From the IMG/VR virus record IMGVR_UViG_3300038603_000024, positions 1 through 64,000 of that record: a stretch of DNA of 64,000 bases, one strand, 5' to 3'. Position 1 is the first letter of the stretch. Each line of letters starts with the position of its first letter. The position numbers were made by a program, and so were the translations under genes. The DNA comes from a virus. Taxonomy: Duplodnaviria; Heunggongvirae; Uroviricota; Caudoviricetes. Positions 14-54,696 of the stretch are shown one piece after another. The notes under the pieces are model-generated. The model searched no databases and was not told where the DNA came from. It was given only the letters and a program-made list of their open reading frames with translations.

Positions 14-89
14 TGGACCACCCTCCGGGACTTGAACCCAGATCTGAAGCTTAGGAGGCAACTGCTCTATCCGGTTGAGCTAAGGGTGG
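14..89 (-). tRNA. tRNA-Arg(CCU)-like gene. It has a 7-bp acceptor stem, a 4-bp D-stem, the anticodon loop CUCCUAA, a 5-bp T-stem with a TTCAAGT loop, and 3' TCCA. Two U-U mismatches in the anticodon stem may mean a divergent or att-site-derived copy.
   Basis: I folded the reverse complement of positions 14-89 by hand into a cloverleaf. The anticodon CCT sits in a loop identical to the canonical tRNA-Arg(CCU) loop. The genomic CCA tail is at 14-16 on the complement. Confidence 0.55.
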
Positions 90-187: not shown

Positions 188-1120
188 TTAGATGCATTTG
201 GCCTTGTATGCGTTAATGGCCTTGGCGTTTAGGCTCTTCGCCACGTCTTTCCATTCTAGCCCCATCCCAGCCAGTTCGTCAGCGCTTTCCTTCTTGACGT
301 CATTGCCGAACCACCTTGCGAAGTCACCGATGCGCTTGAAGTCAAATTCACCGTCACAAGCTTCGGACGCTGCTTGTTGGATACGTGCGTCAGTAATGAA
401 GGCATCGCAGAAGGCCAACACATTGGCAGGGATCTCTACCTTTGCAGTCGCTGCTGCTTTGGTTTTCTTGACCCGGTGAGCCTCACATTTCACCTTGCAA
501 ATCATTTTGGAATAGTCCTCACGACTTGCCCGACGTGGCGACAAAACAAATCCCTCCCCTGGTCCTGAAATATCCCACATCGCCTTAATGTATGGATCTT
601 CCTTGCCAATGCTTTCAGCTAGGTCGGACAGCTCCTGCGCTTTAGCCCCAACATCCTTGTCGTCAAAAAGGTTTAGCTCGAACTCTTTCATAATCGGCAG
701 GACTTCAACCCCATCGACATTAGGAACCATCTCACTGATAACCTCTGGGTCACTGCACACTTCACCAGTGCTTAGGTCTTGGATCGCAAAGACAAAGAAC
801 ATCTTCTTAGCAATGTTGCTTACTGCGTCACTCTTTTGGACACCCGGTCCAGCCCATTCTCCGTAAACGGCACAGTTCATCGGGAAGTCGCTTGGGTTCA
901 GAGTGTCCACAAAGCCTGCAAAGCCAAAGTTGTCGTCTCCAACCTTAATGATCCGGCTGCGAGACTGAGCGTAAAGTCCGCCCTCATCTCGAACAATTGC
1001 AGCGTTAGTCCCGTGCAGTTTGATTTTCGCAATAAAGTTTCGCTCAGTCATTCCGTATCGACGTGCATTTTTCACAAAGTGAGAAAAGCTTTCGACGCTT
1101 GGGTACTTATGAAATTCCAT
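188..1120 (-). CDS. RNA ligase, Rnl2 family (T4 Rnl2-like nucleotidyltransferase).
   Basis: Motif I KLHGTNAAI contains the lysine adenylylation site. YGEWAGPGVQK, EGFVLSP and KVKCEAH line up with Rnl2 motifs III to V. An AGGAGA ribosome-binding site precedes the ATG. Confidence 0.8.
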   Translation of the reverse strand: MEFHKYPSVESFSHFVKNARRYGMTERNFIAKIKLHGTNAAIVRDEGGLYAQSRSRIIKVGDDNFGFAGFVDTLNPSDFPMNCAVYGEWAGPGVQKSDAVSNIAKKMFFVFAIQDLSTGEVCSDPEVISEMVPNVDGVEVLPIMKEFELNLFDDKDVGAKAQELSDLAESIGKEDPYIKAMWDISGPGEGFVLSPRRASREDYSKMICKVKCEAHRVKKTKAAATAKVEIPANVLAFCDAFITDARIQQAASEACDGEFDFKRIGDFARWFGNDVKKESADELAGMGLEWKDVAKSLNAKAINAYKAKCI

Positions 1121-2820: not shown

Positions 2821-5676
2821 CTAGGTCAAATCTACGATTTCACAAACTCCGGCGCTACAGGCTAGAGTGCTAGACCCTTTGGTCGTGTCTTCGCGCTCGA
2901 ACTCAGCTAGGCCAGACCAGTCAATCGCGCTGGGCATCTTGGCAAGCATGGCCTCGTATTCCTCGCGTGTGCAGTCCTGATATGGTGCCTGCTGGTACGT
3001 GTGATCCGAGTGAGGCAGGAAGCTAATCCCGCTAACCTCATCAAAGTGCTTGTAGACCCAAGCGCCAACTTCAAGCCACTCATGATCTCGCACAGAAACC
3101 GTAACAGACGGCTTATGCTCACACCAGTGACGCTGATATGTCAGCCAGAACTCAAGCTGTTCCAGGGCTGTCATGTCGTTGCGCGTGATAGCACCTTCTG
3201 GCGACTTCATAGGGAAGCTGAAAACCGTAGTGGTATCAGGCTTCATCACGTCAGGCTCATTGGGAATGCCCTGCGACTTCATGAACTCCGTCAGCGGATC
3301 TTTGTTGTCACCTCGAACAGTTCGGATGTAGTAGTCGCTGTGACGCGCGTGGATGCCGCTTGCGGTATCTGTTAGCTGGCTAACCGTTCCCGATGGCTTC
3401 ACACACGTGATAGCTGCCGACTGTGGAATGCCAAGGCGTTCTGCCCATTCCTTGTTGGTGTCGATTGCGGTTTGGCGGAGGGTGTCCAAAACTCGCGGCA
3501 GAGGGGGCTCTGAGTAACCGCACATGCCTACATCATTAAGTACTGAACAATCCATAATACCTGTTAGGCTTACACCAAGAAGGCGCTCCTCTTCAGTATT
3601 CTCACGCCAAATATCGCGCAGATACGGGAAGTGGGTGTAGGTGCTTTGGATGGTGCCAAGGATGGTGGCCAGTTTTACCTTTCGTTTCAGGTCTTCAAGC
3701 GTATCATCTGCACGGCATACTACCTCTGTTAGATTGCAAAAGGAATACGGGCGCAAGATAATTTCACTATTTCCTGTCACAATGCCATTAAATGTCCCGC
3801 GCGACGTTTCAGGCTCAGTGAAGCAATACGTCATCTCATAGCGGTCAAGAGGCTCAATCGAAGCAACGCGAACAAACCGACGCGCATCACGCTGAGGGCT
3901 TTTGCCATTGTGATCAAGTCGGCTCAGGTTAAGACCCATTTCCATGAGGTCGTAAGCGTCAGAGCTGTTAATCAGGATGCGCTTTGACTCTTTGCAGAAG
4001 TACTCCTTCATGCCGCCGCGACCGTCAGGCATTTCACGATAGCCAGCGGGTGCTGCAGCTACAACCTTGGCTCGGACTCCCATAGTGGTAAGCATGAGGC
4101 GAAGGCGGTCCAGAAAATCGTGGTCAACAGACGCCAACTGGAACGAAACGCCATGTGTGCTGCGTAGAATTGTTCCGTCAGCATCAAGAAGCCCAGCCAG
4201 CCAGTTCAAGCGATATTCCAGCGTTGCATCCATAGGCACGAATGACTTGTCCATCATAGGCCCGTGATTCCACACTTTGCGCTCAGTTTTCGAACCGTCT
4301 GGGTAAACTTTGCCAATCAAGCGGTCAATGCATGGATACTTAGGCTCATAGACCCAAGAGCGTGTCATGCCCTTGTTGCCATCCCCGGAGTAGAAGCCTT
4401 GAGAGTAAGCATCAATCTGGGGATCATTGTCACCTTCAACGACAGGCATATCAAACTTTTCAAGCTTGTCGCCAACTTTGATATCGCTGGTCTCGACAAA
4501 ACCCTTCCCGTCAATCACCCAGCGGTGATTCCAGGTACAATCAAGATATGATCCATCAGTCAATGTGACGCGAACAAGGTCAGCTTCACCGGCAGCATAT
4601 GGAACTACAGTGGCCCAGTTTTCACCGTTCCAGATTTCAGTTTCCTCGCCAACAGTTTCAACGATTGGCTTGTATCCGCTGGACGTCAGGATTTCGGTCT
4701 CAGGCGAGCAACAGCATGGATTTGTCCCGAAGTCCCAATCAGTATCACGGCGACCATTCTTAGCAGCCTGATTAACGCTTGCTTGCCGATTGAAGATGCC
4801 GCGCTCACCGGACTTGCTTTCCATCAGGGCCAGCCATTCACGCATAAAGCTTTCCGCGTCGGGCTTGTCGGTGAATGCAACGGAGTTGTTGGCAAGAGCG
4901 CGCTGAGGATCAGTCACCCACCACTGGCCTGACTTGGCATGGCGCATACGGTCATCACTGAGGTTGCTGAGGCTAATCATAGCAGAGCGACGAACGCCAC
5001 CCACAACCACAATCTCGCCAATCTTACACATCAGGTCGTGACACTCGATGGATGTCAGCTTGCGGCCCTGTGCTTTCTTGAATACGCCAATGGTGAAGTT
5101 AAACAGATCAACCAGCGGATCAGGGCCAGAAGCGCGACCGCCAAATGTCTTGAGCTTGGCACCTGCGGGGCGGACTGCAGACACGTCCCACGTGGGGGTA
5201 TGACCGGACCACAAGTGTTCTAGCAGTTCACGATATGATTTGGCCCATCCCTCCTTACTGTCTTCAACGACAATAACCGGCACATCACCATCCATCTTCT
5301 CAGGCACTTCTGGAAGCTTGTTTACATACTGCCGCTCAACACTGAAGCCCACGCCAGTGCCACACAGCAGGATAAACATTGCCTCATCAAACGAGCGCGG
5401 ATGATCTACTGGCAGGTATGAGCAGTTGTAGATGCAAGTATTGTCTCGATCAGCAGCAGGACCAGCGGTCATCAGTGCGCGCATCGACGGGGCAGTTTCC
5501 AGACCACGAATAGCTTGGCTCAGTTCTTCAACAGTCTCGGCATCAGCGCCAGACGGAACGACGATATTCTCAATATATCGGTCTACAGTTTCATCCCAAG
5601 TTTCTCGCCGGTTTTCTTCTGGCAGCCATCGTGCATAGCGGCTTACCGCGATAAACTTCTGATAGTCATTCATCAA
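2821..5676 (-). CDS. Ribonucleotide reductase catalytic subunit, probably class II cobalamin-dependent, interrupted by an intein.
   Basis: Removing the intein restores the active-site motif N-P-C-S-E. A C-terminal CSAGVC redox pair is present. No NrdB gene is in the window. A GAAGGA ribosome-binding site precedes the start. Confidence 0.8.
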   Translation of the reverse strand: MMNDYQKFIAVSRYARWLPEENRRETWDETVDRYIENIVVPSGADAETVEELSQAIRGLETAPSMRALMTAGPAADRDNTCIYNCSYLPVDHPRSFDEAMFILLCGTGVGFSVERQYVNKLPEVPEKMDGDVPVIVVEDSKEGWAKSYRELLEHLWSGHTPTWDVSAVRPAGAKLKTFGGRASGPDPLVDLFNFTIGVFKKAQGRKLTSIECHDLMCKIGEIVVVGGVRRSAMISLSNLSDDRMRHAKSGQWWVTDPQRALANNSVAFTDKPDAESFMREWLALMESKSGERGIFNRQASVNQAAKNGRRDTDWDFGTNPCCCSPETEILTSSGYKPIVETVGEETEIWNGENWATVVPYAAGEADLVRVTLTDGSYLDCTWNHRWVIDGKGFVETSDIKVGDKLEKFDMPVVEGDNDPQIDAYSQGFYSGDGNKGMTRSWVYEPKYPCIDRLIGKVYPDGSKTERKVWNHGPMMDKSFVPMDATLEYRLNWLAGLLDADGTILRSTHGVSFQLASVDHDFLDRLRLMLTTMGVRAKVVAAAPAGYREMPDGRGGMKEYFCKESKRILINSSDAYDLMEMGLNLSRLDHNGKSPQRDARRFVRVASIEPLDRYEMTYCFTEPETSRGTFNGIVTGNSEIILRPYSFCNLTEVVCRADDTLEDLKRKVKLATILGTIQSTYTHFPYLRDIWRENTEEERLLGVSLTGIMDCSVLNDVGMCGYSEPPLPRVLDTLRQTAIDTNKEWAERLGIPQSAAITCVKPSGTVSQLTDTASGIHARHSDYYIRTVRGDNKDPLTEFMKSQGIPNEPDVMKPDTTTVFSFPMKSPEGAITRNDMTALEQLEFWLTYQRHWCEHKPSVTVSVRDHEWLEVGAWVYKHFDEVSGISFLPHSDHTYQQAPYQDCTREEYEAMLAKMPSAIDWSGLAEFEREDTTKGSSTLACSAGVCEIVDLT
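3769..4713 (-). mobile_element. Intein (about 315 aa) with a LAGLIDADG homing-endonuclease domain, inserted directly after the catalytic Cys of the reductase.
   Basis: The element starts C-C-S-P-E-T-E-I-L, which fits Hint block A. LAGLIDADG blocks are YSQGFYSGDGNKG and LNWLAGLLDADGTI. It ends IVTGN, followed by a +1 Ser. Confidence 0.75.
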
Positions 5677-5772: not shown

Positions 5773-6249
5773 TCACAGCGCCACGAATGTTTTGAACATA
5801 AGCCACTTAGCACAGTGGTTATATGCGTCAATGCCAATGCCGTGATCTGCGTTTACAAGGAATGCGCGCTTATGATCAATCTTGACATCATCCAAAGCGA
5901 CCCAGAGCATGTTGTCTGTTTTGTTGCGGTCTAGCCACTCATTGATTGCAGTCAGCCTGTCTACATCTGGGTAGACCGTATGCATATCCTCATGTAGGTC
6001 ATCACCAAATCCAGCGGCTACAAATTGATTGATCAGCCCTGGAATCCTGCCGTGTTGATGGAGATGCCTATTGTGAGTCGTGTTGAACACAATCTTAGCG
6101 CCCGACGCATCAATGATTTTCCGCAAAACAGCGACACACCTATCGTCTAGCTCCTGCTCCCAGGAGGCCATCTTGTTGAACAGAAATGACGTGTATGGAA
6201 TCATAGGTCCATCAATGTCTAGGAATATTACTTTATCCGGCATCTTCAC
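5773..6249 (-). CDS. HAD-superfamily hydrolase, a putative nucleotide or polynucleotide phosphatase.
   Basis: The N-terminal motif VIFLDIDGP fits the DxDG nucleophile motif. It is ATGA-coupled to the dut stop. Confidence 0.65.
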   Translation of the reverse strand: MKMPDKVIFLDIDGPMIPYTSFLFNKMASWEQELDDRCVAVLRKIIDASGAKIVFNTTHNRHLHQHGRIPGLINQFVAAGFGDDLHEDMHTVYPDVDRLTAINEWLDRNKTDNMLWVALDDVKIDHKRAFLVNADHGIGIDAYNHCAKWLMFKTFVAL

Positions 6250-48758: not shown

Positions 48759-49100
48759 TTAGTCGGTATGGCTTTCGTTAAGACCAAGAGCAGATAGGAC
48801 GCGACGGGCGTAGTCTTTTTGAGCGGCGGCTTTGGCGGCTTCCTTTGTTTCGTGTTCAGATACTTGCTCCATGCCAACCAATACACCGCCAAGCATCCAT
48901 TTGCCGTAGGCATTTTCATACATACGGTATTCTGCATTGGCTGCAGATGTGGGATCTTTTGCGAACGTACCGTATTTGTCGGTGCACCATTCTAGATCCA
49001 TGCTTTCAGCGATAACTGAGAGGATAGCGTCGGCGGCCTCGGATGGGTGATGATTGCGGTATTCTCTAATGGTTTGTTCTATTTTGTCACGTAGGTTCAT
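48759..49100 (-). CDS. Hypothetical protein (113 aa, MNLRDKIEQTIREYR...).
   Basis: I took the internal start, which has a GGAGGT ribosome-binding site. The longer listed ORF overlaps the upstream gene. Confidence 0.4.
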   Translation of the reverse strand: MNLRDKIEQTIREYRNHHPSEAADAILSVIAESMDLEWCTDKYGTFAKDPTSAANAEYRMYENAYGKWMLGGVLVGMEQVSEHETKEAAKAAAQKDYARRVLSALGLNESHTD

Positions 49101-49104
49101 TTTG

Positions 49105-49509
49105 TTACCTCCACGGCGTGTCATTAGTGAAGAAGCAGTTGCCGCCGATACATCCGTCAAACTCATACTCACTTTCCCAGAATTGAGGCTTTCCCTCAGT
49201 CCGAAAGTGCGTTGACGTGATCTCCAGCCCATTGCCTGACAGCGCGTCCTCTGCCACGGCAACCGCTGCGTCCCATGCCCATTCGTCAGGTGCGCCATTA
49301 GTCTTTGGCTTGGGCGCAGTCTTGTCAACGATAGAGGCCCAAGGGAACTGATTATCCGCAAACACAACCCCGCAGGCTGTATCCGCATAGCGCTCATCCT
49401 CAACCCGGTTCTGAACAACAGCGACAACAGCCGCCATTGCGTCAGGGGTTTGGTAGTGTTCGCGTGACTCGAAGAAAGCCGCCAAGGCCAAACAGGTAAG
49501 AGGTGTCAT
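49105..49509 (-). CDS. Cell-wall hydrolase, SleB-like (Hydrolase_2 fold).
   Basis: AMAAVVAVVQNRVEDERYADTACGVVFADNQF matches the SleB-family core. Confidence 0.5.
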   Translation of the reverse strand: MTPLTCLALAAFFESREHYQTPDAMAAVVAVVQNRVEDERYADTACGVVFADNQFPWASIVDKTAPKPKTNGAPDEWAWDAAVAVAEDALSGNGLEITSTHFRTEGKPQFWESEYEFDGCIGGNCFFTNDTPWR

Positions 49510-50003
49510 GCTCGCTCGCTTTCTCTGTGTGCAGTGCCGCCGAAGTTCATCAGATTGTAATAGTCGCGCAAGTACTGCTCGTTGTCAGTTTTCGTGATGT
49601 AGCAACCAAACCTAGCGCCACTCCGAAAGAAACGTTTATCTACCGTAGTGGTTTCTGACCACTTATAGCCAAACACCTCAAACTTATCCTCAAGGTACAT
49701 TTGCACGGCGTTCATTCGCTGCTGACCGTCAATAAGAAGGTTGTTGTACTTGCTGCCGTATAGGCGATTGAAGGTGTAGGTGCCTACTGGCAATCCAAGC
49801 CAGAGGCTTTCAATCAGTCTGACGTTTTGATCTTTTGTCCATACAAGCCCGCGCTGCCAGTCCGGAAGAAAATACCCCATGACGCTTCGCAGTCCCTGAG
49901 TATTTTCCTCTTCTTGATCCTCATAATGCATCATTGCCTCGCCAATACATGCATCAAATCTATGACCTAGATCCATTGTTTTAGGCATCACGCGCTTGCT
50001 CAT
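49506..50003 (-). CDS. DUF262 / ParB-like (DGQQR motif) domain protein.
   Basis: NLLIDGQQRMNA is the conserved DUF262 motif. Lies downstream of the large terminase. Confidence 0.55.
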   Translation of the reverse strand: MSKRVMPKTMDLGHRFDACIGEAMMHYEDQEEENTQGLRSVMGYFLPDWQRGLVWTKDQNVRLIESLWLGLPVGTYTFNRLYGSKYNNLLIDGQQRMNAVQMYLEDKFEVFGYKWSETTTVDKRFFRSGARFGCYITKTDNEQYLRDYYNLMNFGGTAHRESERA

Positions 50004-50058
50004 CTCATCTCTCCTTTTCCTGCATCCAACATACATCCTCAAGTGGTGGCGTCAACAC

Positions 50059-52908
50059 TTATTTGCGACCTTTCCCGCGCAGTCTGTCCAATCGGTTGTT
50101 GCCCTTGCGTAGATTGGACGTGCCACCAAGGATGCGTTGGGGCTGATGTGCCGCCATCTGCTCCCGCATTTGTGCAACCCGTGGCTTCCTCAGTCCTACC
50201 GCGTGTGAGTAGTGCAGCATGATTGTGGTGTCTGCTTTGTCAGGGGACCGGCCAAGGCGTTCCTTGACTTTATCCTTCGGCTCTAGCTCAACCACCTGCT
50301 GCGCCACAGACGATGCGCCAGACTTCCATTCTTTGACACGGAAAGCACACAGTTCAACCAGCAATTCAGGATCTGGGGGGAGGGCAATATCATCGCCATT
50401 GTTCGGATCAAGCGCGTCACGCAGCGCCCACAGTGCCTCAGCTTTGAAGTTGCGGAATTTGTACAGCCCGTTGCGAGAGGGTCGCGTTGACTTGGTGGAT
50501 GATACAAAGCCGTAGCATTCAATCCCAGCCTCTGCCAGCTTGGTAAGGGCATCACCACCGTAACCGCCACCAGCATCGACAACCACCCGGCACTGTCCTT
50601 TGACCTGCTTCATGATCTCAGAAGCGGCTGTCATTCCGTCTGGGGTTTGCGATCCTGGAACAGTGTGGAAATGTCCGAACCATGCCCCGTGCCGTGCTTG
50701 TACAACAGTCCTATCTGCACCGCCCTGTGCGATGTCAGAGGCAACGGCAGTCATCGGAATATCGTCAGGCGGAGTGTCGATCCACCGGGCCTGTGCCAAG
50801 CGTACCCACTCGGAGGGGATGACTTGTTTCTCATCGTCTTCTTGGTCTGCGGTAAAGTCGCCATACAGCAGCTGGGAACGCAGAGGCTCAGGCAACGCCA
50901 TGACGCGCGCCTTGTAGCCCTTGTCATTGGCTAGGTACGGATTGTCAGCAACAAGAGACGGGATGAATGTTCGGCTCATGGCAATATACGGCTCACCGTC
51001 TACGATATGCTCACCGGGGCCATCAACCCAAACCGTCTTGCCCCTTACGATAATAGACCACCGCAGTTCACCCGGTTGTGCGCGCTGCGTCCGCTCCGCC
51101 TTGATCCACGGGTCAAACTCTTCTAACAGCCATTGCCCGTCACCACCTCGCGGCGGGTTGGTGCCTAGGATAATTCGGCATCGTTGGTCTGGTCGAGTAG
51201 TACGAAGCCAAGCAAACAGGGAGAACACCTGCTCTTTTAGGAACTCGCCAGCCTCATCAAACGCCATATAGTCCCGCGCGTTACCGGCGTGTTTTCGCCA
51301 GTCGTCGGCTTGCTGAAGGCCCGCAAACTTTAGGCTTTTCCCATCCCCCCATGTCCAAAGCTTCTCGACTTTGTTGTAACTTGCATCGGGAATTTTTTCA
51401 AAGACCTCATGAGAGAACGCAATCAGACCATCAAGCTGCGTGGCTTCACGGCGGAAGATGATGCCAGTGTGATGATACAGGGACGGACACCCGACCTCAA
51501 GCGCACTATTGTGAGTGACGATGAAGCTATCGCCCAAGCAATAACTGTGATCAGCGTTATCAACTTGGATACACTGCATAGGGACAGGCTCAACCGGCTG
51601 CACGTCTGCGATGTACCGGCGCAAAACGTACTCAGGTTTCGGCGTCAGGTTCTGCAACTTCGCCTTCCTCGGCAGGTTAAAAACCCTCTTGTCAGTGTTG
51701 AATTTCAGTCTGTAGTGATCATTGTGTCTGCTGTTCTTTTTGCTCAGCTCTTTCACTTTGATCGTGCTTTTAATTCCAAGCGTTCCAAGAAGTCTGTGGA
51801 CATCCTCAATAAGATCCTTGTCTGAAAAGGACACCTCACAATCACCTCTGCCACGGCAGGCGGTTCCGTCTGTATCCATAAGCCCGCGAAGCAAGTTGAG
51901 CCTCTGCTCATGCGAAGAGCTGAAATATACTTCCGGGATTCTCTTTATGACGAACTCGTTTTCTGACTTACTCCAATCTGTCTCCAGCAAACGGAACAGA
52001 TCTTTCCCTAAGTCTTTAGAATGCGCGGCCAGCATTTTCCTTCCTGGACGTTTCATCTCCTTGTATGAAAAGTCATAGACGTCTAGGTATGGCTTAAGCA
52101 CTTGCAAGTCGTCATCCAGCATGGCGATTCTAGAGTGGTATTTATCACCATCTCCGAGCCAGATGCCAAACACATATGGATCAATTGGCAAGTCAGCGCT
52201 TGGAAGCTGAATAGGCTTCATCACTTGAACGCTATGATTTTTCTCACCCCTTTTAGACGTAAGGGTTTCAAAAATCTCTTGCGTGGTTCGCGCCGATGGC
52301 CTTGGAGGCTCACTGTAGTTATATTTCCTCAGTGAGTTATTTTTCTTTGTAGTGTCGCTTTGCAACTTCCCCTTTGATGGGTTGGACTTCGCACGGCTCG
52401 GGCGGCTAGCCTTTCTAGCTTCCCTAAACTCAGGAGTTTTTCTAGATGCGCTTTTGCGCTCTGCGCTGGTCATTGTGATCCACTCGTGGCGAGCATCACA
52501 AATGAAGCTTTCACCCGTGTTGAATGTAACACGATATGCAACGTCTGGGGTGAACACCTCAGATTTAGCAACGACATTTGTTGGAAGCCCATCCGAGCCA
52601 AACACCACGTCACCGACCTTCAAAGTCTCCATGGTTTGCGGGCCTCGATTCGCTGTGTTGATTTTTGTGTTTAAAATCAAGGCCTTGCCGCCACCACTAC
52701 CCCCGCCAAAGAGGAGAATATCCGCCTCACTCAGCAACGCATCTGTCTGCGCTCCGGGGTTTGGGATAAACGGCGCTGTTCCGATAGCTGCGTCTACCGT
52801 CTCCTCAAGCTCTTTTCTGGCTTCGGGCGGCATTGCGTCGAGGATTTTCAGGAGTTCATCAATATCCATGTAGGGCCTGCAAACAAAGAAATAGGTTGCT
52901 TGGACCAT
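50059..52908 (-). CDS. terL: Terminase large subunit interrupted by an intein.
   Basis: Excising the intein restores the Walker A motif GGGSGGGK-S. The Walker B motif is YMAFDEAGEF, and a C-terminal nuclease region is present. Confidence 0.8.
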   Translation of the reverse strand: MVQATYFFVCRPYMDIDELLKILDAMPPEARKELEETVDAAIGTAPFIPNPGAQTDALLSEADILLFGGGSGGGKALILNTKINTANRGPQTMETLKVGDVVFGSDGLPTNVVAKSEVFTPDVAYRVTFNTGESFICDARHEWITMTSAERKSASRKTPEFREARKASRPSRAKSNPSKGKLQSDTTKKNNSLRKYNYSEPPRPSARTTQEIFETLTSKRGEKNHSVQVMKPIQLPSADLPIDPYVFGIWLGDGDKYHSRIAMLDDDLQVLKPYLDVYDFSYKEMKRPGRKMLAAHSKDLGKDLFRLLETDWSKSENEFVIKRIPEVYFSSSHEQRLNLLRGLMDTDGTACRGRGDCEVSFSDKDLIEDVHRLLGTLGIKSTIKVKELSKKNSRHNDHYRLKFNTDKRVFNLPRKAKLQNLTPKPEYVLRRYIADVQPVEPVPMQCIQVDNADHSYCLGDSFIVTHNSALEVGCPSLYHHTGIIFRREATQLDGLIAFSHEVFEKIPDASYNKVEKLWTWGDGKSLKFAGLQQADDWRKHAGNARDYMAFDEAGEFLKEQVFSLFAWLRTTRPDQRCRIILGTNPPRGGDGQWLLEEFDPWIKAERTQRAQPGELRWSIIVRGKTVWVDGPGEHIVDGEPYIAMSRTFIPSLVADNPYLANDKGYKARVMALPEPLRSQLLYGDFTADQEDDEKQVIPSEWVRLAQARWIDTPPDDIPMTAVASDIAQGGADRTVVQARHGAWFGHFHTVPGSQTPDGMTAASEIMKQVKGQCRVVVDAGGGYGGDALTKLAEAGIECYGFVSSTKSTRPSRNGLYKFRNFKAEALWALRDALDPNNGDDIALPPDPELLVELCAFRVKEWKSGASSVAQQVVELEPKDKVKERLGRSPDKADTTIMLHYSHAVGLRKPRVAQMREQMAAHQPQRILGGTSNLRKGNNRLDRLRGKGRK
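51508..52683 (-). mobile_element. Intein (about 392 aa) with a LAGLIDADG homing endonuclease, inserted in the terminase P-loop between the Walker lysine and Ser.
   Basis: It starts ALILNTKI (block A, with an apparent Ala1). The Hint core is KVGDVVFGSDG...VAYRVTFNTGESFICDARHEW. LAGLIDADG blocks are FGIWLGDGDK and LLRGLMDTDGT. It ends FIVTHN, with +1 Ser. Confidence 0.7.
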
Positions 52909-53221
52909 ACCAGATATTGTTGTGGATGTTAAGAGAAAGCCCGGACCATTAGCCGCCAGGGTCCGGGTACTGGCATCATCAAGCCTGCGGAGAGGAGAGG
53001 AGGAGAGACGCAGGCGATAGCTATGAAGTTACAATAGGTGTTTGTCAGGTCGAGTGCAACACCTATTTGATCCGCGCACTTCCCCAAACGCTTGCAGCCG
53101 TACTGGCTAGGAGGCCGGACTTAACGCTAGGCCATTGCAGCCAGTCTGGCAGCTTCAGGATGAGCGGCTTGGCGTTGGGTTTCATGTGGTATTTAATTCT
53201 GTCTTCTGTCGTAACCATTGA

Positions 53222-53704
53222 TTATTTCTCCAGTGATGTAAAAACTGCGCCTAGACTTTTAGCTTTCATTAGCGCCAATTTCGCTTTGTATCCCGCTGCT
53301 AGTAGTGTTGTTCCCGTTCCAGGTGATTGACCAACAGATCCGTCTGGTCGTTCAAACTTTATCTTTGGAGACATAAACAAGACTGCATCTGCCATCGGTG
53401 CAAACTCCTGCCACCACGGCGCTGATGTTCGATCAGGGAGCAAGGCAATGCCGTTGCCGTGATCAAAAAACTTGCTCAGCCAAAGCCGCTTGGTGGACTG
53501 GTGTCCAAATGGAGGGTTCATCCAGACAAAGCCGGTCCATTCCCGTTCCAACGATTTCTCCGAATAAAAGGAGTTGGCCGGGACGTACCGTGGCCCTTCG
53601 GGTGGACTGGCAACATCCAGATCAAAACGCACACCTAGCGCATGAAAGATATATGCCGGGGTGTACCATTCGTCGCTTTCTCCTGCTTTCTCATATGCTG
53701 CCAT
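53222..53704 (-). CDS. Phage Dam-type N6-adenine DNA methyltransferase (small, 160 aa).
   Basis: Motifs DEWYTP and MNPPFG. Confidence 0.7.
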   Translation of the reverse strand: MAAYEKAGESDEWYTPAYIFHALGVRFDLDVASPPEGPRYVPANSFYSEKSLEREWTGFVWMNPPFGHQSTKRLWLSKFFDHGNGIALLPDRTSAPWWQEFAPMADAVLFMSPKIKFERPDGSVGQSPGTGTTLLAAGYKAKLALMKAKSLGAVFTSLEK

Positions 53705-53716
53705 ATTTAAAGACCT

Positions 53717-53980
53717 TCATTCACCCAGCCCCTCTTTAGCAACAGCCACCATCCGTTTCCCGATGTGCGCCATGTTTGGTGTTTCCATTGCAACGATCTC
53801 GCGCAGTTTATTATGCGCCGCTGCAGCCACTTCCCAGCCCTTAGACGACTCGCGTGCACTTGCCACGTAGTCAGCTTTTGTCTGCAGGTACAACTTTTGC
53901 CACTCTTCGGACAGACGGAAAGCTCGTGACAATTCCCCGCCGCTAATCACGTCCACTAGTTTCTCTCGAAATGTCATCAC
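53717..53980 (-). CDS. Hypothetical protein (87 aa).
   Basis: ORF in the track, coupled to its neighbour. Confidence 0.3.
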   Translation of the reverse strand: MMTFREKLVDVISGGELSRAFRLSEEWQKLYLQTKADYVASARESSKGWEVAAAAHNKLREIVAMETPNMAHIGKRMVAVAKEGLGE

Positions 53981-54696
53981 ACTTCCTCCATGACAATCAC
54001 GTCACCGTTTTCGTTGGTGAATGTCCCGGTTGCTGGCTTGCCGTCTGTCCGAGTGTAGCTAATCACCACGTCATCGGTGCCATTCTCTGACCACATAGCG
54101 CCAGTGGTCCTGTCACGCTTCAGCGTTACCGTTTCGCGCACAGGATTAGGCTTGATGCGGTAGGCGAACTCGTCCTTCCACAGGTTTTCAGGTGAAAGCT
54201 CACCCCATCCTGACGGAGCAGGCGGGTACTCCCATTCAATAACTTTACCCTCATGGTGAGCAAACAACAGCTCTCCCTTTTCCTCTTCGGTCATTTCTCC
54301 CCACGTCTTAGTCCCGCCAAGTTCACCCACAACAGATTTAGTTTTCCCGTATTTTTCTGTGTAACTGGAGTAGGGAAAAACAAACGCTTTAATAGGTCCC
54401 GCCACACCCCTCATCTTCACGACAAGGTCGGCAAGCGTTCCGGTTTTAGGTTCACGCACAAAAGGACCGTCTTGACGCTCATCGCAGATTGCGTTCAGCT
54501 CGTCGTCTTCGATCCACTCGGAGATGAGGTCAGTTTCAGGATGATTAAGATTTTGGCGCTTGCCATATTTAGACCAGTATCCCTTTATTACATTGCAAGT
54601 AAATGGGTACCCGTCATAGCAGATGCCATCATCTACCATAGGTCCGACTTTTTCCCCACTGCGTGTCCGGTAGCATTTCCCAACTTTAATTTCCAT
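53977..54696 (-). CDS. Hypothetical protein (239 aa).
   Basis: ORF in the track. Confidence 0.35.
   Translation of the reverse strand: MEIKVGKCYRTRSGEKVGPMVDDGICYDGYPFTCNVIKGYWSKYGKRQNLNHPETDLISEWIEDDELNAICDERQDGPFVREPKTGTLADLVVKMRGVAGPIKAFVFPYSSYTEKYGKTKSVVGELGGTKTWGEMTEEEKGELLFAHHEGKVIEWEYPPAPSGWGELSPENLWKDEFAYRIKPNPVRETVTLKRDRTTGAMWSENGTDDVVISYTRTDGKPATGTFTNENGDVIVMEEV

Follow-up and report, generated by a model that had tools for sequence, protein, structure and literature searches.

Class 3 inteins are defined by a non-nucleophilic first residue, by a co-varying triplet of Trp at position B:12, Cys at F:4 and Thr at G:5 of the splicing blocks (WCT), and by Ser or Thr at the +1 position (Tori et al., 2010, PMC2807308; restated by Kelley et al., PMC5050341). 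Most of them reside in the ATPase P-loops of helicase-like proteins, including the large terminase subunit of phages, TerL (PMC2807308; PMC5050341), and in TerL class 3 inteins with LAGLIDADG endonucleases are common (PMC5050341; 2025 PhagesDB survey, bioRxiv 10.1101/2025.01.02.630785). Class 2 inteins, of the KlbA type, are without the WCT triplet and have Asp at F:4 and Cys at +1 (PMC2807308). The known class 3 inteins come mostly from actinobacteria and their phages. Here we analyse 64,000 nucleotides of a tailed phage genome (IMG/VR record IMGVR_UViG_3300038603_000024, positions 1 to 64,000; hereafter the window), in which the TerL gene is interrupted by an element that is very probably a class 3 intein of large size (392 aa) with a LAGLIDADG homing endonuclease inside it.

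The interrupted terminase gene and its intein-free counterparts

The first-pass annotation, made from the sequence alone, placed the gene at 50059-52908, and this does exist as one uninterrupted open reading frame (ORF). The true start, however, is probably not the first ATG at 52908 but Met14 of the ORF, since the identical protein in NCBI (P0001) and an 81% identical relative (P0002) both begin with MDIDELL and are 936 aa long; the N-termini of homologues also align from Met14 onward. The first 13 codons (52870..52908) are probably untranslated. ORFs on the plus strand within the region (e.g. 51409..51825 and 52352..52873) were taken as shadows of the minus-strand gene, whose parts are the following.

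50059..52908, minus strand: full ORF of the TerL precursor with its intein, 949 codons plus stop, uninterrupted
52867..52869, minus strand: Met14 of the ORF, the likely start codon, giving a precursor of 936 aa
52684..52869, minus strand: N-extein, 62 aa counted from Met14, with the beginning of Walker A at its end
52684..52707, minus strand: first part of Walker A, GGGSGGGK
51508..52683, minus strand: intein, 392 aa, Ala1 to Asn392 (ORF residues 76-467), absent from intein-free homologues
50062..51507, minus strand: C-extein, 482 aa, with the remaining ATPase domain and the RNase-H-like nuclease domain
51244..51270, minus strand: Walker B, YMAFDEAGE, within the C-extein
50059..50061, minus strand: TerL stop codon

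The ORF reads ...LFGGGSGGGK/ALILNTKI...DSFIVTHN/SALEVGCP..., the slashes marking the two junctions, and its translation joins extein and intein as ...SEADILLFGGGSGGGK ALILNTKINT... DSFIVTHN SALEVGCPSLYHH.... The insertion point falls precisely between Lys and Ser of the P-loop (GGGSGGGK/S); the insert is followed by Ser+1, itself the Ser/Thr of the Walker A consensus GxxxxGK[S/T]. The GC content drops across the insert, being 0.45-0.49 over the intein and 0.55-0.57 in the C-extein.

Several homologues lack the insert. The TerL of Acidovorax phage AP1 (GGSAGGGK/TDLLLG) and Bbp25 of Bordetella phage BPP-1 (GGAAGGGK/TDLIAG) are continuous across the insertion point. In a tblastn search of phage genomes, these two, the Caulobacter phages and others were found without the insert, whereas the TerL of Aphanizomenon phage CL131 and a Thiohalocapsa phage gene were found with one. 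Six closer relatives, P0009-P0013 and P0018 (55-58% identity, 527-552 aa), read GGxAGGGK/[S/T]ALEVGC[P/A/M], which is exactly the end of the window N-extein joined to the start of its C-extein; intein-free P0014 also joins GGGK directly to [S/T]ALEVGC. At the DNA level, empty alleles are present in IMG/VR at L009-L011, L013, L014 and L019. The empty site of L010 is GGTGGAGGTAAG/AGTGCTTTGGAGGTCGGTTGC, to be compared with the fused flanks of the window, GGTGGCGGCAAG/AGTGCGCTTGAGGTCGGGTGT (also written GGTGGCGGCAAG/AGTGCGCTTGAGGTCGGGTGTCCG), and the DNA conserved among the empty alleles is ...GGxGGxAAR/AGYGCxYTxGAGGTxGG.... The element thus combines a Hint fold with an insertion that orthologues do not have and whose empty alleles restore GxxxxGK[S/T], as in inteins generally. 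Empty alleles in related phage terminases, which the first-pass annotation had named as a check, therefore exist, and at both the protein and the DNA level they bear out its placing of the insert between the P-loop Lys and Ser.

Assignment of the intein to class 3

The splicing blocks, numbered from Ala1 of the intein, are located as follows.

52642..52683, minus strand: block A, ALILNTKINTANRG; residue 1 is Ala (52681..52683), with no N-terminal nucleophile
52471..52515, minus strand: block B, GESFICDARHEWITM; DxxH with His66 (B:10) and Trp68 (B:12, 52480..52482)
51523..51585, minus strand: block F, VPMQCIQVDNADHSYCLGDSF; Cys371 (F:4, 51571..51573) is the predicted initiating nucleophile
51505..51525, minus strand: block G with Ser+1, FIVTHN/S; Thr390 (G:5), His391 and Asn392, with Ser+1 at 51505..51507

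These blocks contain the residues that distinguish class 3, namely Ala1, FICD63ARH66EW68, VPMQC371IQVDN and IVT390H391N392/S. Residue 1 is Ala and not Cys, Ser or Thr; Trp stands at B:12, two residues past the block B His; Cys stands at F:4; Thr at G:5 is followed by the penultimate His and the terminal Asn; and the +1 residue is Ser. A phmmer search against all PDB chains ranked class 3 DnaB inteins at the top, with 6RIX/6RIY (M. chimaera DnaB1) first at 2.5e-13 and 6BS8 (M. smegmatis DnaBi1) at 4.4e-13. The alignments run from residue 1 (ALALDTPL versus ALILNTKI) to the terminal Asn. Block B (DARH-E-W) aligns with DAQHQW of 6BS8 and DAAHQW of 6RIX, and block F (VPMQC371IQVDN) with VPVRCVEVDN of both, the aligned Cys being the catalytic Cys118/Cys124 of the crystallised class 3 inteins (PMC6195587; PMC7664689). 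The His, Trp, Cys and Thr of the window intein fall on the crystallographic catalytic residues of the class 3 DnaB inteins.

The same residues are invariant in the intein-bearing matches from a search of a large protein collection: His, Trp, Cys, Thr and Asn, with the penultimate His, are found in 103/103 of these homologues. At residue 1, A predominates (76 homologues), followed by L (8), D (6), G (5), R (3), M (2) and single cases of Q, P and E, whereas C, S and T never occur there. At +1, S (74) and T (28) account for all but a single C, and the dipeptide before the intein is GK in 90 of the 103. An insert starting with Ala, ending in HN and followed by Ser+1, as initially described, is therefore upheld by the intein-free alleles and by the PDB alignment. 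The Ala start, which had been considered non-canonical, is to be expected and is not an anomaly, because Ala1, WCT, Ser or Thr at +1 and a terminase P-loop make up the published definition and habitat of class 3. Of the "class 2/3-like" mechanism that had been suggested, the class 3 part stands and the class 2 part does not.

The endonuclease domain and the fold model

A basic linker and a LAGLIDADG domain separate block B from block F, the limits being approximate and drawn from Pfam matches, fold and the per-residue model confidence (predicted local distance difference test, pLDDT).

51709..52470, approximate limits, minus strand: basic linker and LAGLIDADG domain, intein residues ~72-325
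52186..52470, minus strand: Lys/Arg/Ser-rich segment (RKSASRKTPEFREARKASRPSRAKSNPSKGKLQSDTTKKNNSLRK...), ~95 residues (intein ~72-166), between block B and the endonuclease core
52138..52179, minus strand: LAGLIDADG motif 1, PYVFGIWLGDGDKY; family consensus DPYxxGxWLGDG
51859..51900, minus strand: LAGLIDADG motif 2, LNLLRGLMDTDGTA

Both motifs (WLGDGD and LMDTDG) keep the catalytic-type acidic residue at motif position 8. Pfam LAGLIDADG_3 matches residues 334-404 (4e-11) and Hom_end is above its cut-off (8.6e-5), while the match of Hom_end_hint to residues 81-156 is weak and sub-threshold. For the 936-aa precursor, an AlphaFold2 model based on an alignment of 44 sequences reached a mean pLDDT of 83; the endonuclease is mostly at 85-98, its core at 90-98, and the splice junctions are the least confident part. 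When this model was compared with the PDB by Foldseek, PI-SceI came first (E 1.8e-17, template modelling (TM) score 0.61 on the target) and the Sf6 gp2 large terminase next (4e-16). Further matches were the TliVMA, PhoVMA and PI-PfuI inteins, I-DmoI and 6RIX on the one hand, and the D6E, T4 gp17 and HK97 terminases and the TerL nuclease domains 5c12 and 8dkr on the other. The endonuclease domain itself matches PI-SceI, PI-PfuI and I-DmoI. The Pfam domains, the motifs and the fold matches to I-DmoI and to the endonuclease of PI-SceI all identify a two-motif LAGLIDADG enzyme, of the monomeric kind with an alpha-beta-beta-alpha-beta-beta-alpha fold, set within a Hint domain, in agreement with the first-pass annotation on the two motifs and the Hint blocks.

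The basic segment is predicted to form short helices. It may be a DNA-contact region, but this is only a guess. Comparable basic stretches are present in the CL131 and Thiohalocapsa inteins.

The host gene and its conservation

The exteins belong to a phage large terminase that shows no damage other than the insert. In PHROGs they match four "terminase large subunit" families (1e-23 to 3.5e-37), phrog_979 covering ORF residues 481-728; Pfam Terminase_6N matches residues 483-588 only weakly, below threshold. The PHROGs and fold matches, the latter to Sf6 gp2, D6E, T4 gp17 and HK97 TerL, together with the invariance of the Walker B DE and of the nuclease Asp residues in alignments of homologues, describe an ATPase of the additional strand, conserved glutamate (ASCE) type with a C-terminal RNase-H-like nuclease. 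The portal (PF12236) and capsid genes lie downstream, as expected of TerL. The identification as a large terminase had been made in the first-pass annotation and is supported throughout. Because the insert separates the Walker A Lys and Ser that bind ATP and Mg, the unspliced precursor should be inactive and unable to package DNA; the inactivity of unspliced P-loop-intein proteins has likewise been argued in PMC6195587. The identical protein recurs on at least 24 contigs, many of them ~80 kb, which fits a viable circulating phage.

Selection was examined by a gap-free comparison with P0002 (locus L007:2967-5777). In blocks A-B the ratio of nonsynonymous to synonymous divergence (dN/dS) is 0.07, and blocks F-G have no amino-acid change at all (dN 0.000, dS 0.37); the value for the extein is 0.10. 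With dN/dS at 0.00-0.07 in the splice blocks despite many synonymous changes, the splicing residues are kept by purifying selection. Divergence is fastest in the endonuclease domain (50% aa identity, dN 0.45, dS saturated).

The DNA identity between the two genes (50059..52869, minus strand, versus L007:2967-5777) is mosaic, without indels. It reaches ~93-98% in the N-extein start, blocks F-G and the nuclease domain, but is ~65-75% in the P-loop and block A, ~40-60% in the endonuclease and ~60-85% in the ATPase part of the C-extein. The pattern points to recombination tracts inside the gene, possibly tied to homing. The idea of a cassette swap, in which P0002 would have taken its endonuclease from another intein lineage, was rejected, the endonuclease domains of P0001 and P0002 being each other's closest (56%) among 120 hits.

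Alternative explanations

Most inteins start with Cys or Ser, and a Ser stands five residues upstream of Ala1, in GGGSGGGK. The first-pass annotation had allowed that the upstream boundary was mis-called, in which case the element would be a class 1 intein starting at this Ser or at another nearby Ser or Cys. A Ser start would, however, remove GGGK from the P-loop, and every intein-free homologue keeps GGxxGGGK followed by [S/T]ALEVG or TDL. The crystallised class 3 inteins align from Ala1 as well, and residue 1 is never a nucleophile among the 103 homologues, so that this reading is effectively refuted and we attach practically no weight to it. On these alignments the Ala1 boundary is a real one and not mis-called, fixed as it is by the intein-free homologues and by Ala1 of 6BS8. 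Ala1 is also found in class 2 inteins, which the first-pass annotation had raised and in which it is the +1 residue itself that attacks the N-terminal junction, no block F thioester being formed. The chance that the window intein works in this way is very slim, given that its F:4 Cys, B:12 Trp, G:5 Thr and Ser+1 are all unlike class 2 and that its sequence neighbours in the PDB are class 3 inteins and not KlbA. A third possibility is that the insert is fixed and does not splice, the gene being a terminase pseudogene or the insert having been domesticated as a permanent domain. Splicing is, after all, predicted from sequence, the NCBI name of the protein mentions only a homing endonuclease, and the endonuclease domain diverges fast. 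Yet an insert that cuts Walker A between Lys and Ser would leave the unspliced protein unable to package DNA, and no second terminase turned up among the window ORFs examined, although not every ORF was scanned. The uninterrupted ORF, the intact set of catalytic splice residues, the constraint on the splice blocks and the recurrence of the phage genome in many assemblies likewise speak for a functional intein, and we regard a dead or domesticated insert as most improbable.

The mobility of the element is less secure than its splicing. The intein may splice but be immobile, its LAGLIDADG enzyme dead or drifted and its inheritance vertical only. While the flanks of the gene are ~95% identical in DNA between the window phage and the P0002 phage, the endonuclease has diverged to the extent given above, and a closely related empty allele that could serve as homing target was not found. 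Conversely, the two motifs, including the Asp at position 8 of each, have been kept in the window intein, in P0002 and throughout the family of terminase inteins, the endonuclease is modelled at high confidence and matches the active enzymes PI-SceI and I-DmoI, and the target DNA flanking the junction is well conserved in empty alleles. Loss of mobility is thus a possibility to be taken seriously, if not a likely one. Three points weigh against the element being, as we propose, a splicing and homing class 3 intein. Its splicing and homing are predicted by transfer of the mechanism from homologues ~40% identical in the splicing domains. The divergence of the endonuclease could reflect relaxed constraint or decay, although it has retained both LAGLIDADG motifs with their acidic residues. 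Finally, no empty allele above ~59% identity, of the kind that would document recent homing, was present in the 5.8-billion-protein set, IMG/VR or GTDB genomes, the nearest intein-free terminases in the protein set and IMG/VR being 55-59% identical.

A model for splicing and homing

By homology with the mycobacteriophage Bethlehem (MP-Be) DnaB, Msm DnaBi1 and Mch DnaB1 inteins (PMC2807308; PMC5222942; PMC6195587; PMC7664689), the class 3 reading implies the following course of events. The translated precursor would have an interrupted P-loop and be inactive as an ATPase. The thiol of block F Cys371 would attack the Lys(-1)-Ala1 peptide bond, activated by His66 and supported by Trp68 and Thr390, to give a thioester branched intermediate on the intein; in the class 3 inteins studied at the bench this block F intermediate is thiol-labile, and splicing is lost when the block F Cys, the obligate nucleophile, is mutated (PMC2807308; PMC5222942). 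Transfer of the N-extein to the Ser+1 hydroxyl would yield a second branched intermediate, from which the intein would be released by cyclisation of Asn392 with the help of His391. An O-to-N shift would then restore the peptide bond and produce a 544-aa terminase with an intact GGGSGGGKS P-loop. During co-infection, the endonuclease of the freed intein may cut intein-free alleles at the site conserved among them (see above), and repair from the intein-bearing copy would spread the element by homing.

It is conceivable, though unlikely, that splicing of the terminase intein is conditional on redox state and not constitutive. In the class 3 Msm DnaBi1 intein, a disulfide between Cys48 and Cys118 traps the precursor under oxidation (PMC6195587). 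The window intein has extra cysteines, Cys62 directly before the block B DxxH and Cys382 within block F. Because the predicted initiating nucleophile is an internal thiol, that of Cys371, and Cys62 and Cys382 are present, oxidation could trap the precursor by a disulfide. If so, the timing of DNA packaging and virion maturation would respond to the redox state of the Roseobacter-group host, and a second intein of the same genome, in the ribonucleotide reductase NrdJ (see below), would place deoxynucleotide supply under post-translational control too.

The phage genome and its second intein

The window comes from a phage-like genome of ~80 kb, represented by contigs of 79.6-80.2 kb in several assemblies (L005/L006). 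NCBI gives P0001, 100% identical to the TerL precursor, the name "LAGLIDADG family homing endonuclease [Phaeobacter italicus]". A search of the GTDB species-representative genomes gave only one distant locus, in an Acetobacteraceae metagenome-assembled genome, so that the element is not in a representative Phaeobacter genome. When 49000-54000 was compared by megablast with 50,697 phage records, nothing matched, and the T7-type portal is at most 28% identical to those of HTVC010P-type podoviruses, so that the phage lacks a close cultured relative. The ORFs scanned included no integrase. Other features of the window are these.

2821..5676, minus strand: NrdJ, class II (B12-dependent) ribonucleotide reductase, split by an intein
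3769..4713, minus strand: NrdJ intein, 315 aa with a LAGLIDADG_3 domain, at the active-site motif
49506..50042 and 49105..49509, minus strand: GmrSD_N/DUF262 (ParB-like nuclease-type) protein and Hydrolase_2 cell-wall hydrolase
53222..53704: Dam methylase, upstream of TerL
14..89, 188..1120 and 5773..6249, minus strand: tRNA-Arg(CCT), RNA-ligase-family gene and "Swiss Army Knife RNA repair" HAD protein

The NrdJ intein joins its exteins as GTNPC/CCSPETEIL...FNGIVTGN/SEIILRP. It starts with Cys, as in class 1, has Gly in place of the penultimate His and is followed by Ser+1; neither the ~72% identical NrdJ of Lentibacter phage ICBM2 nor that of many Roseobacter CRP phages contains it. With a class 3 intein in TerL and one of class 1 type in NrdJ, a single genome holds inteins of two mechanistic classes.

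Genes for Rad52, SSB, a DEAD helicase, a primase and Dam precede the terminase on its upstream side, and those that follow it downstream encode GmrSD_N/DUF262, Hydrolase_2, the T7-type portal (PF12236), the capsid and a large protein with SLT and M15 peptidase domains. The position of GmrSD_N/DUF262 and Hydrolase_2 between terminase and portal is unusual, and the order is conserved in the P0002 contig. No small terminase could be recognised upstream of TerL (52909..53221), where only Dam and ORFs of 51-52 aa were seen. Directly before the terminase start, at ~52930..52965 on the minus strand, lies a GC-rich hairpin, CCCGGACCC...GGTCCGGGC followed by TTTCTCTT, which looks like an intrinsic terminator. 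Other phage genes are those for ThyA, dUTPase, an RNA ligase, a muramidase and the class II ribonucleotide reductase. The tRNA-Arg(CCT) adjoins the RNA-ligase-family gene, with the HAD repair protein nearby among ThyA, dUTPase and NrdJ, and the three may form a tRNA-repair module.

Comparison with described inteins

Phage terminases with a class 3 LAGLIDADG intein in the P-loop have been on record since 2010, and the understanding of the mechanism is unchanged by the present case. It is a clean further example, whose value lies mainly in annotation and in its use as an experimental example. Terminases split in the P-loop are missed by gene callers and family models. The NCBI name of the identical protein hides a phage terminase, and the homologue of Thiohalocapsa phage LS06-2018-MD04 (L002:1423-4281) is labelled "DarB-like antirestriction". 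With this locus, a marine alphaproteobacterial phage contributes to class 3 an intein that has clear limits and bears an endonuclease. Its origin is consistent with the phage origin and reservoir of class 3 inteins, which has been proposed in work cited by PMC5050341. It also offers a natural construct, with defined empty sites, for studying Ser+1 P-loop class 3 splicing and LAGLIDADG homing in roseophages.

The described inteins closest in mechanism are the class 3 DnaB P-loop inteins, i.e. that of mycobacteriophage Bethlehem DnaB (the prototype), Msm DnaBi1 (6BS8) and Mch DnaB1 (6RIX/6RIY). Like them, the window intein has Ala1 (ALALDT... versus ALILNT...), DxxH-x-W, xxxC in block F, T-H-N and Ser/Thr+1, and it directly follows the GK in the Walker A loop of an ATPase (PMC2807308; PMC6195587; PMC7664689). 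It differs in that its host is a terminase and not a replicative helicase, and whereas the two crystallised DnaB inteins are mini-inteins of 139-146 aa without an endonuclease, the window intein has 392 aa with a basic linker and a LAGLIDADG domain. The identity to the DnaB inteins, ~40%, is confined to the splice blocks. PI-SceI (yeast VMA1) and PI-PfuI, the best fold matches (TM ~0.6), have the same Hint domain interrupted by a two-motif LAGLIDADG endonuclease. PI-SceI, however, is of class 1 (Cys1, Cys+1, Asp at F:4) and has ~15% sequence identity.

Among terminases, the mycobacteriophage intein sites within the ATPase domain of TerL have been named TerL1-a to -e (Kelley et al., 2016, PMC5050341). 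TerL1-a, described as the "classic" insertion of the P-loop, where it separates the invariant Lys from the nucleophilic Thr (PMC5050341), resembles the present one by site. Some 300 Mycobacterium phage records match the window protein by tblastn. Unlike the actinophage terminases, the window TerL belongs to a BPP-1/AP1/CL131-like clade, with its weak Terminase_6N match, and comes from an alphaproteobacterial (Roseobacter-group) phage; the 392 aa of its intein also exceed the 225-359 aa reported for class 3 inteins of actinophages (bioRxiv 10.1101/2025.01.02.630785). Klebsiella jumbo phages of the K64-1 type carry matching terminase inteins. The allelic inteins proper are those of Aphanizomenon phage vB_AphaS-CL131 gp059, Thiohalocapsa phage LS06-2018-MD04 gene 11 and the metagenomic proteins P0002-P0008 and P0015-P0022. 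None appears to be annotated as an intein, the CL131 protein being listed as "terminase large subunit". Apart from P0002 (81%), they are 30-47% identical to the window protein overall, and their residue 1 may be A, D, G, Q, L, R or M; with the window intein they share the terminase clade, the site GGGK/...THN/S, the WCT residues and the LAGLIDADG architecture.

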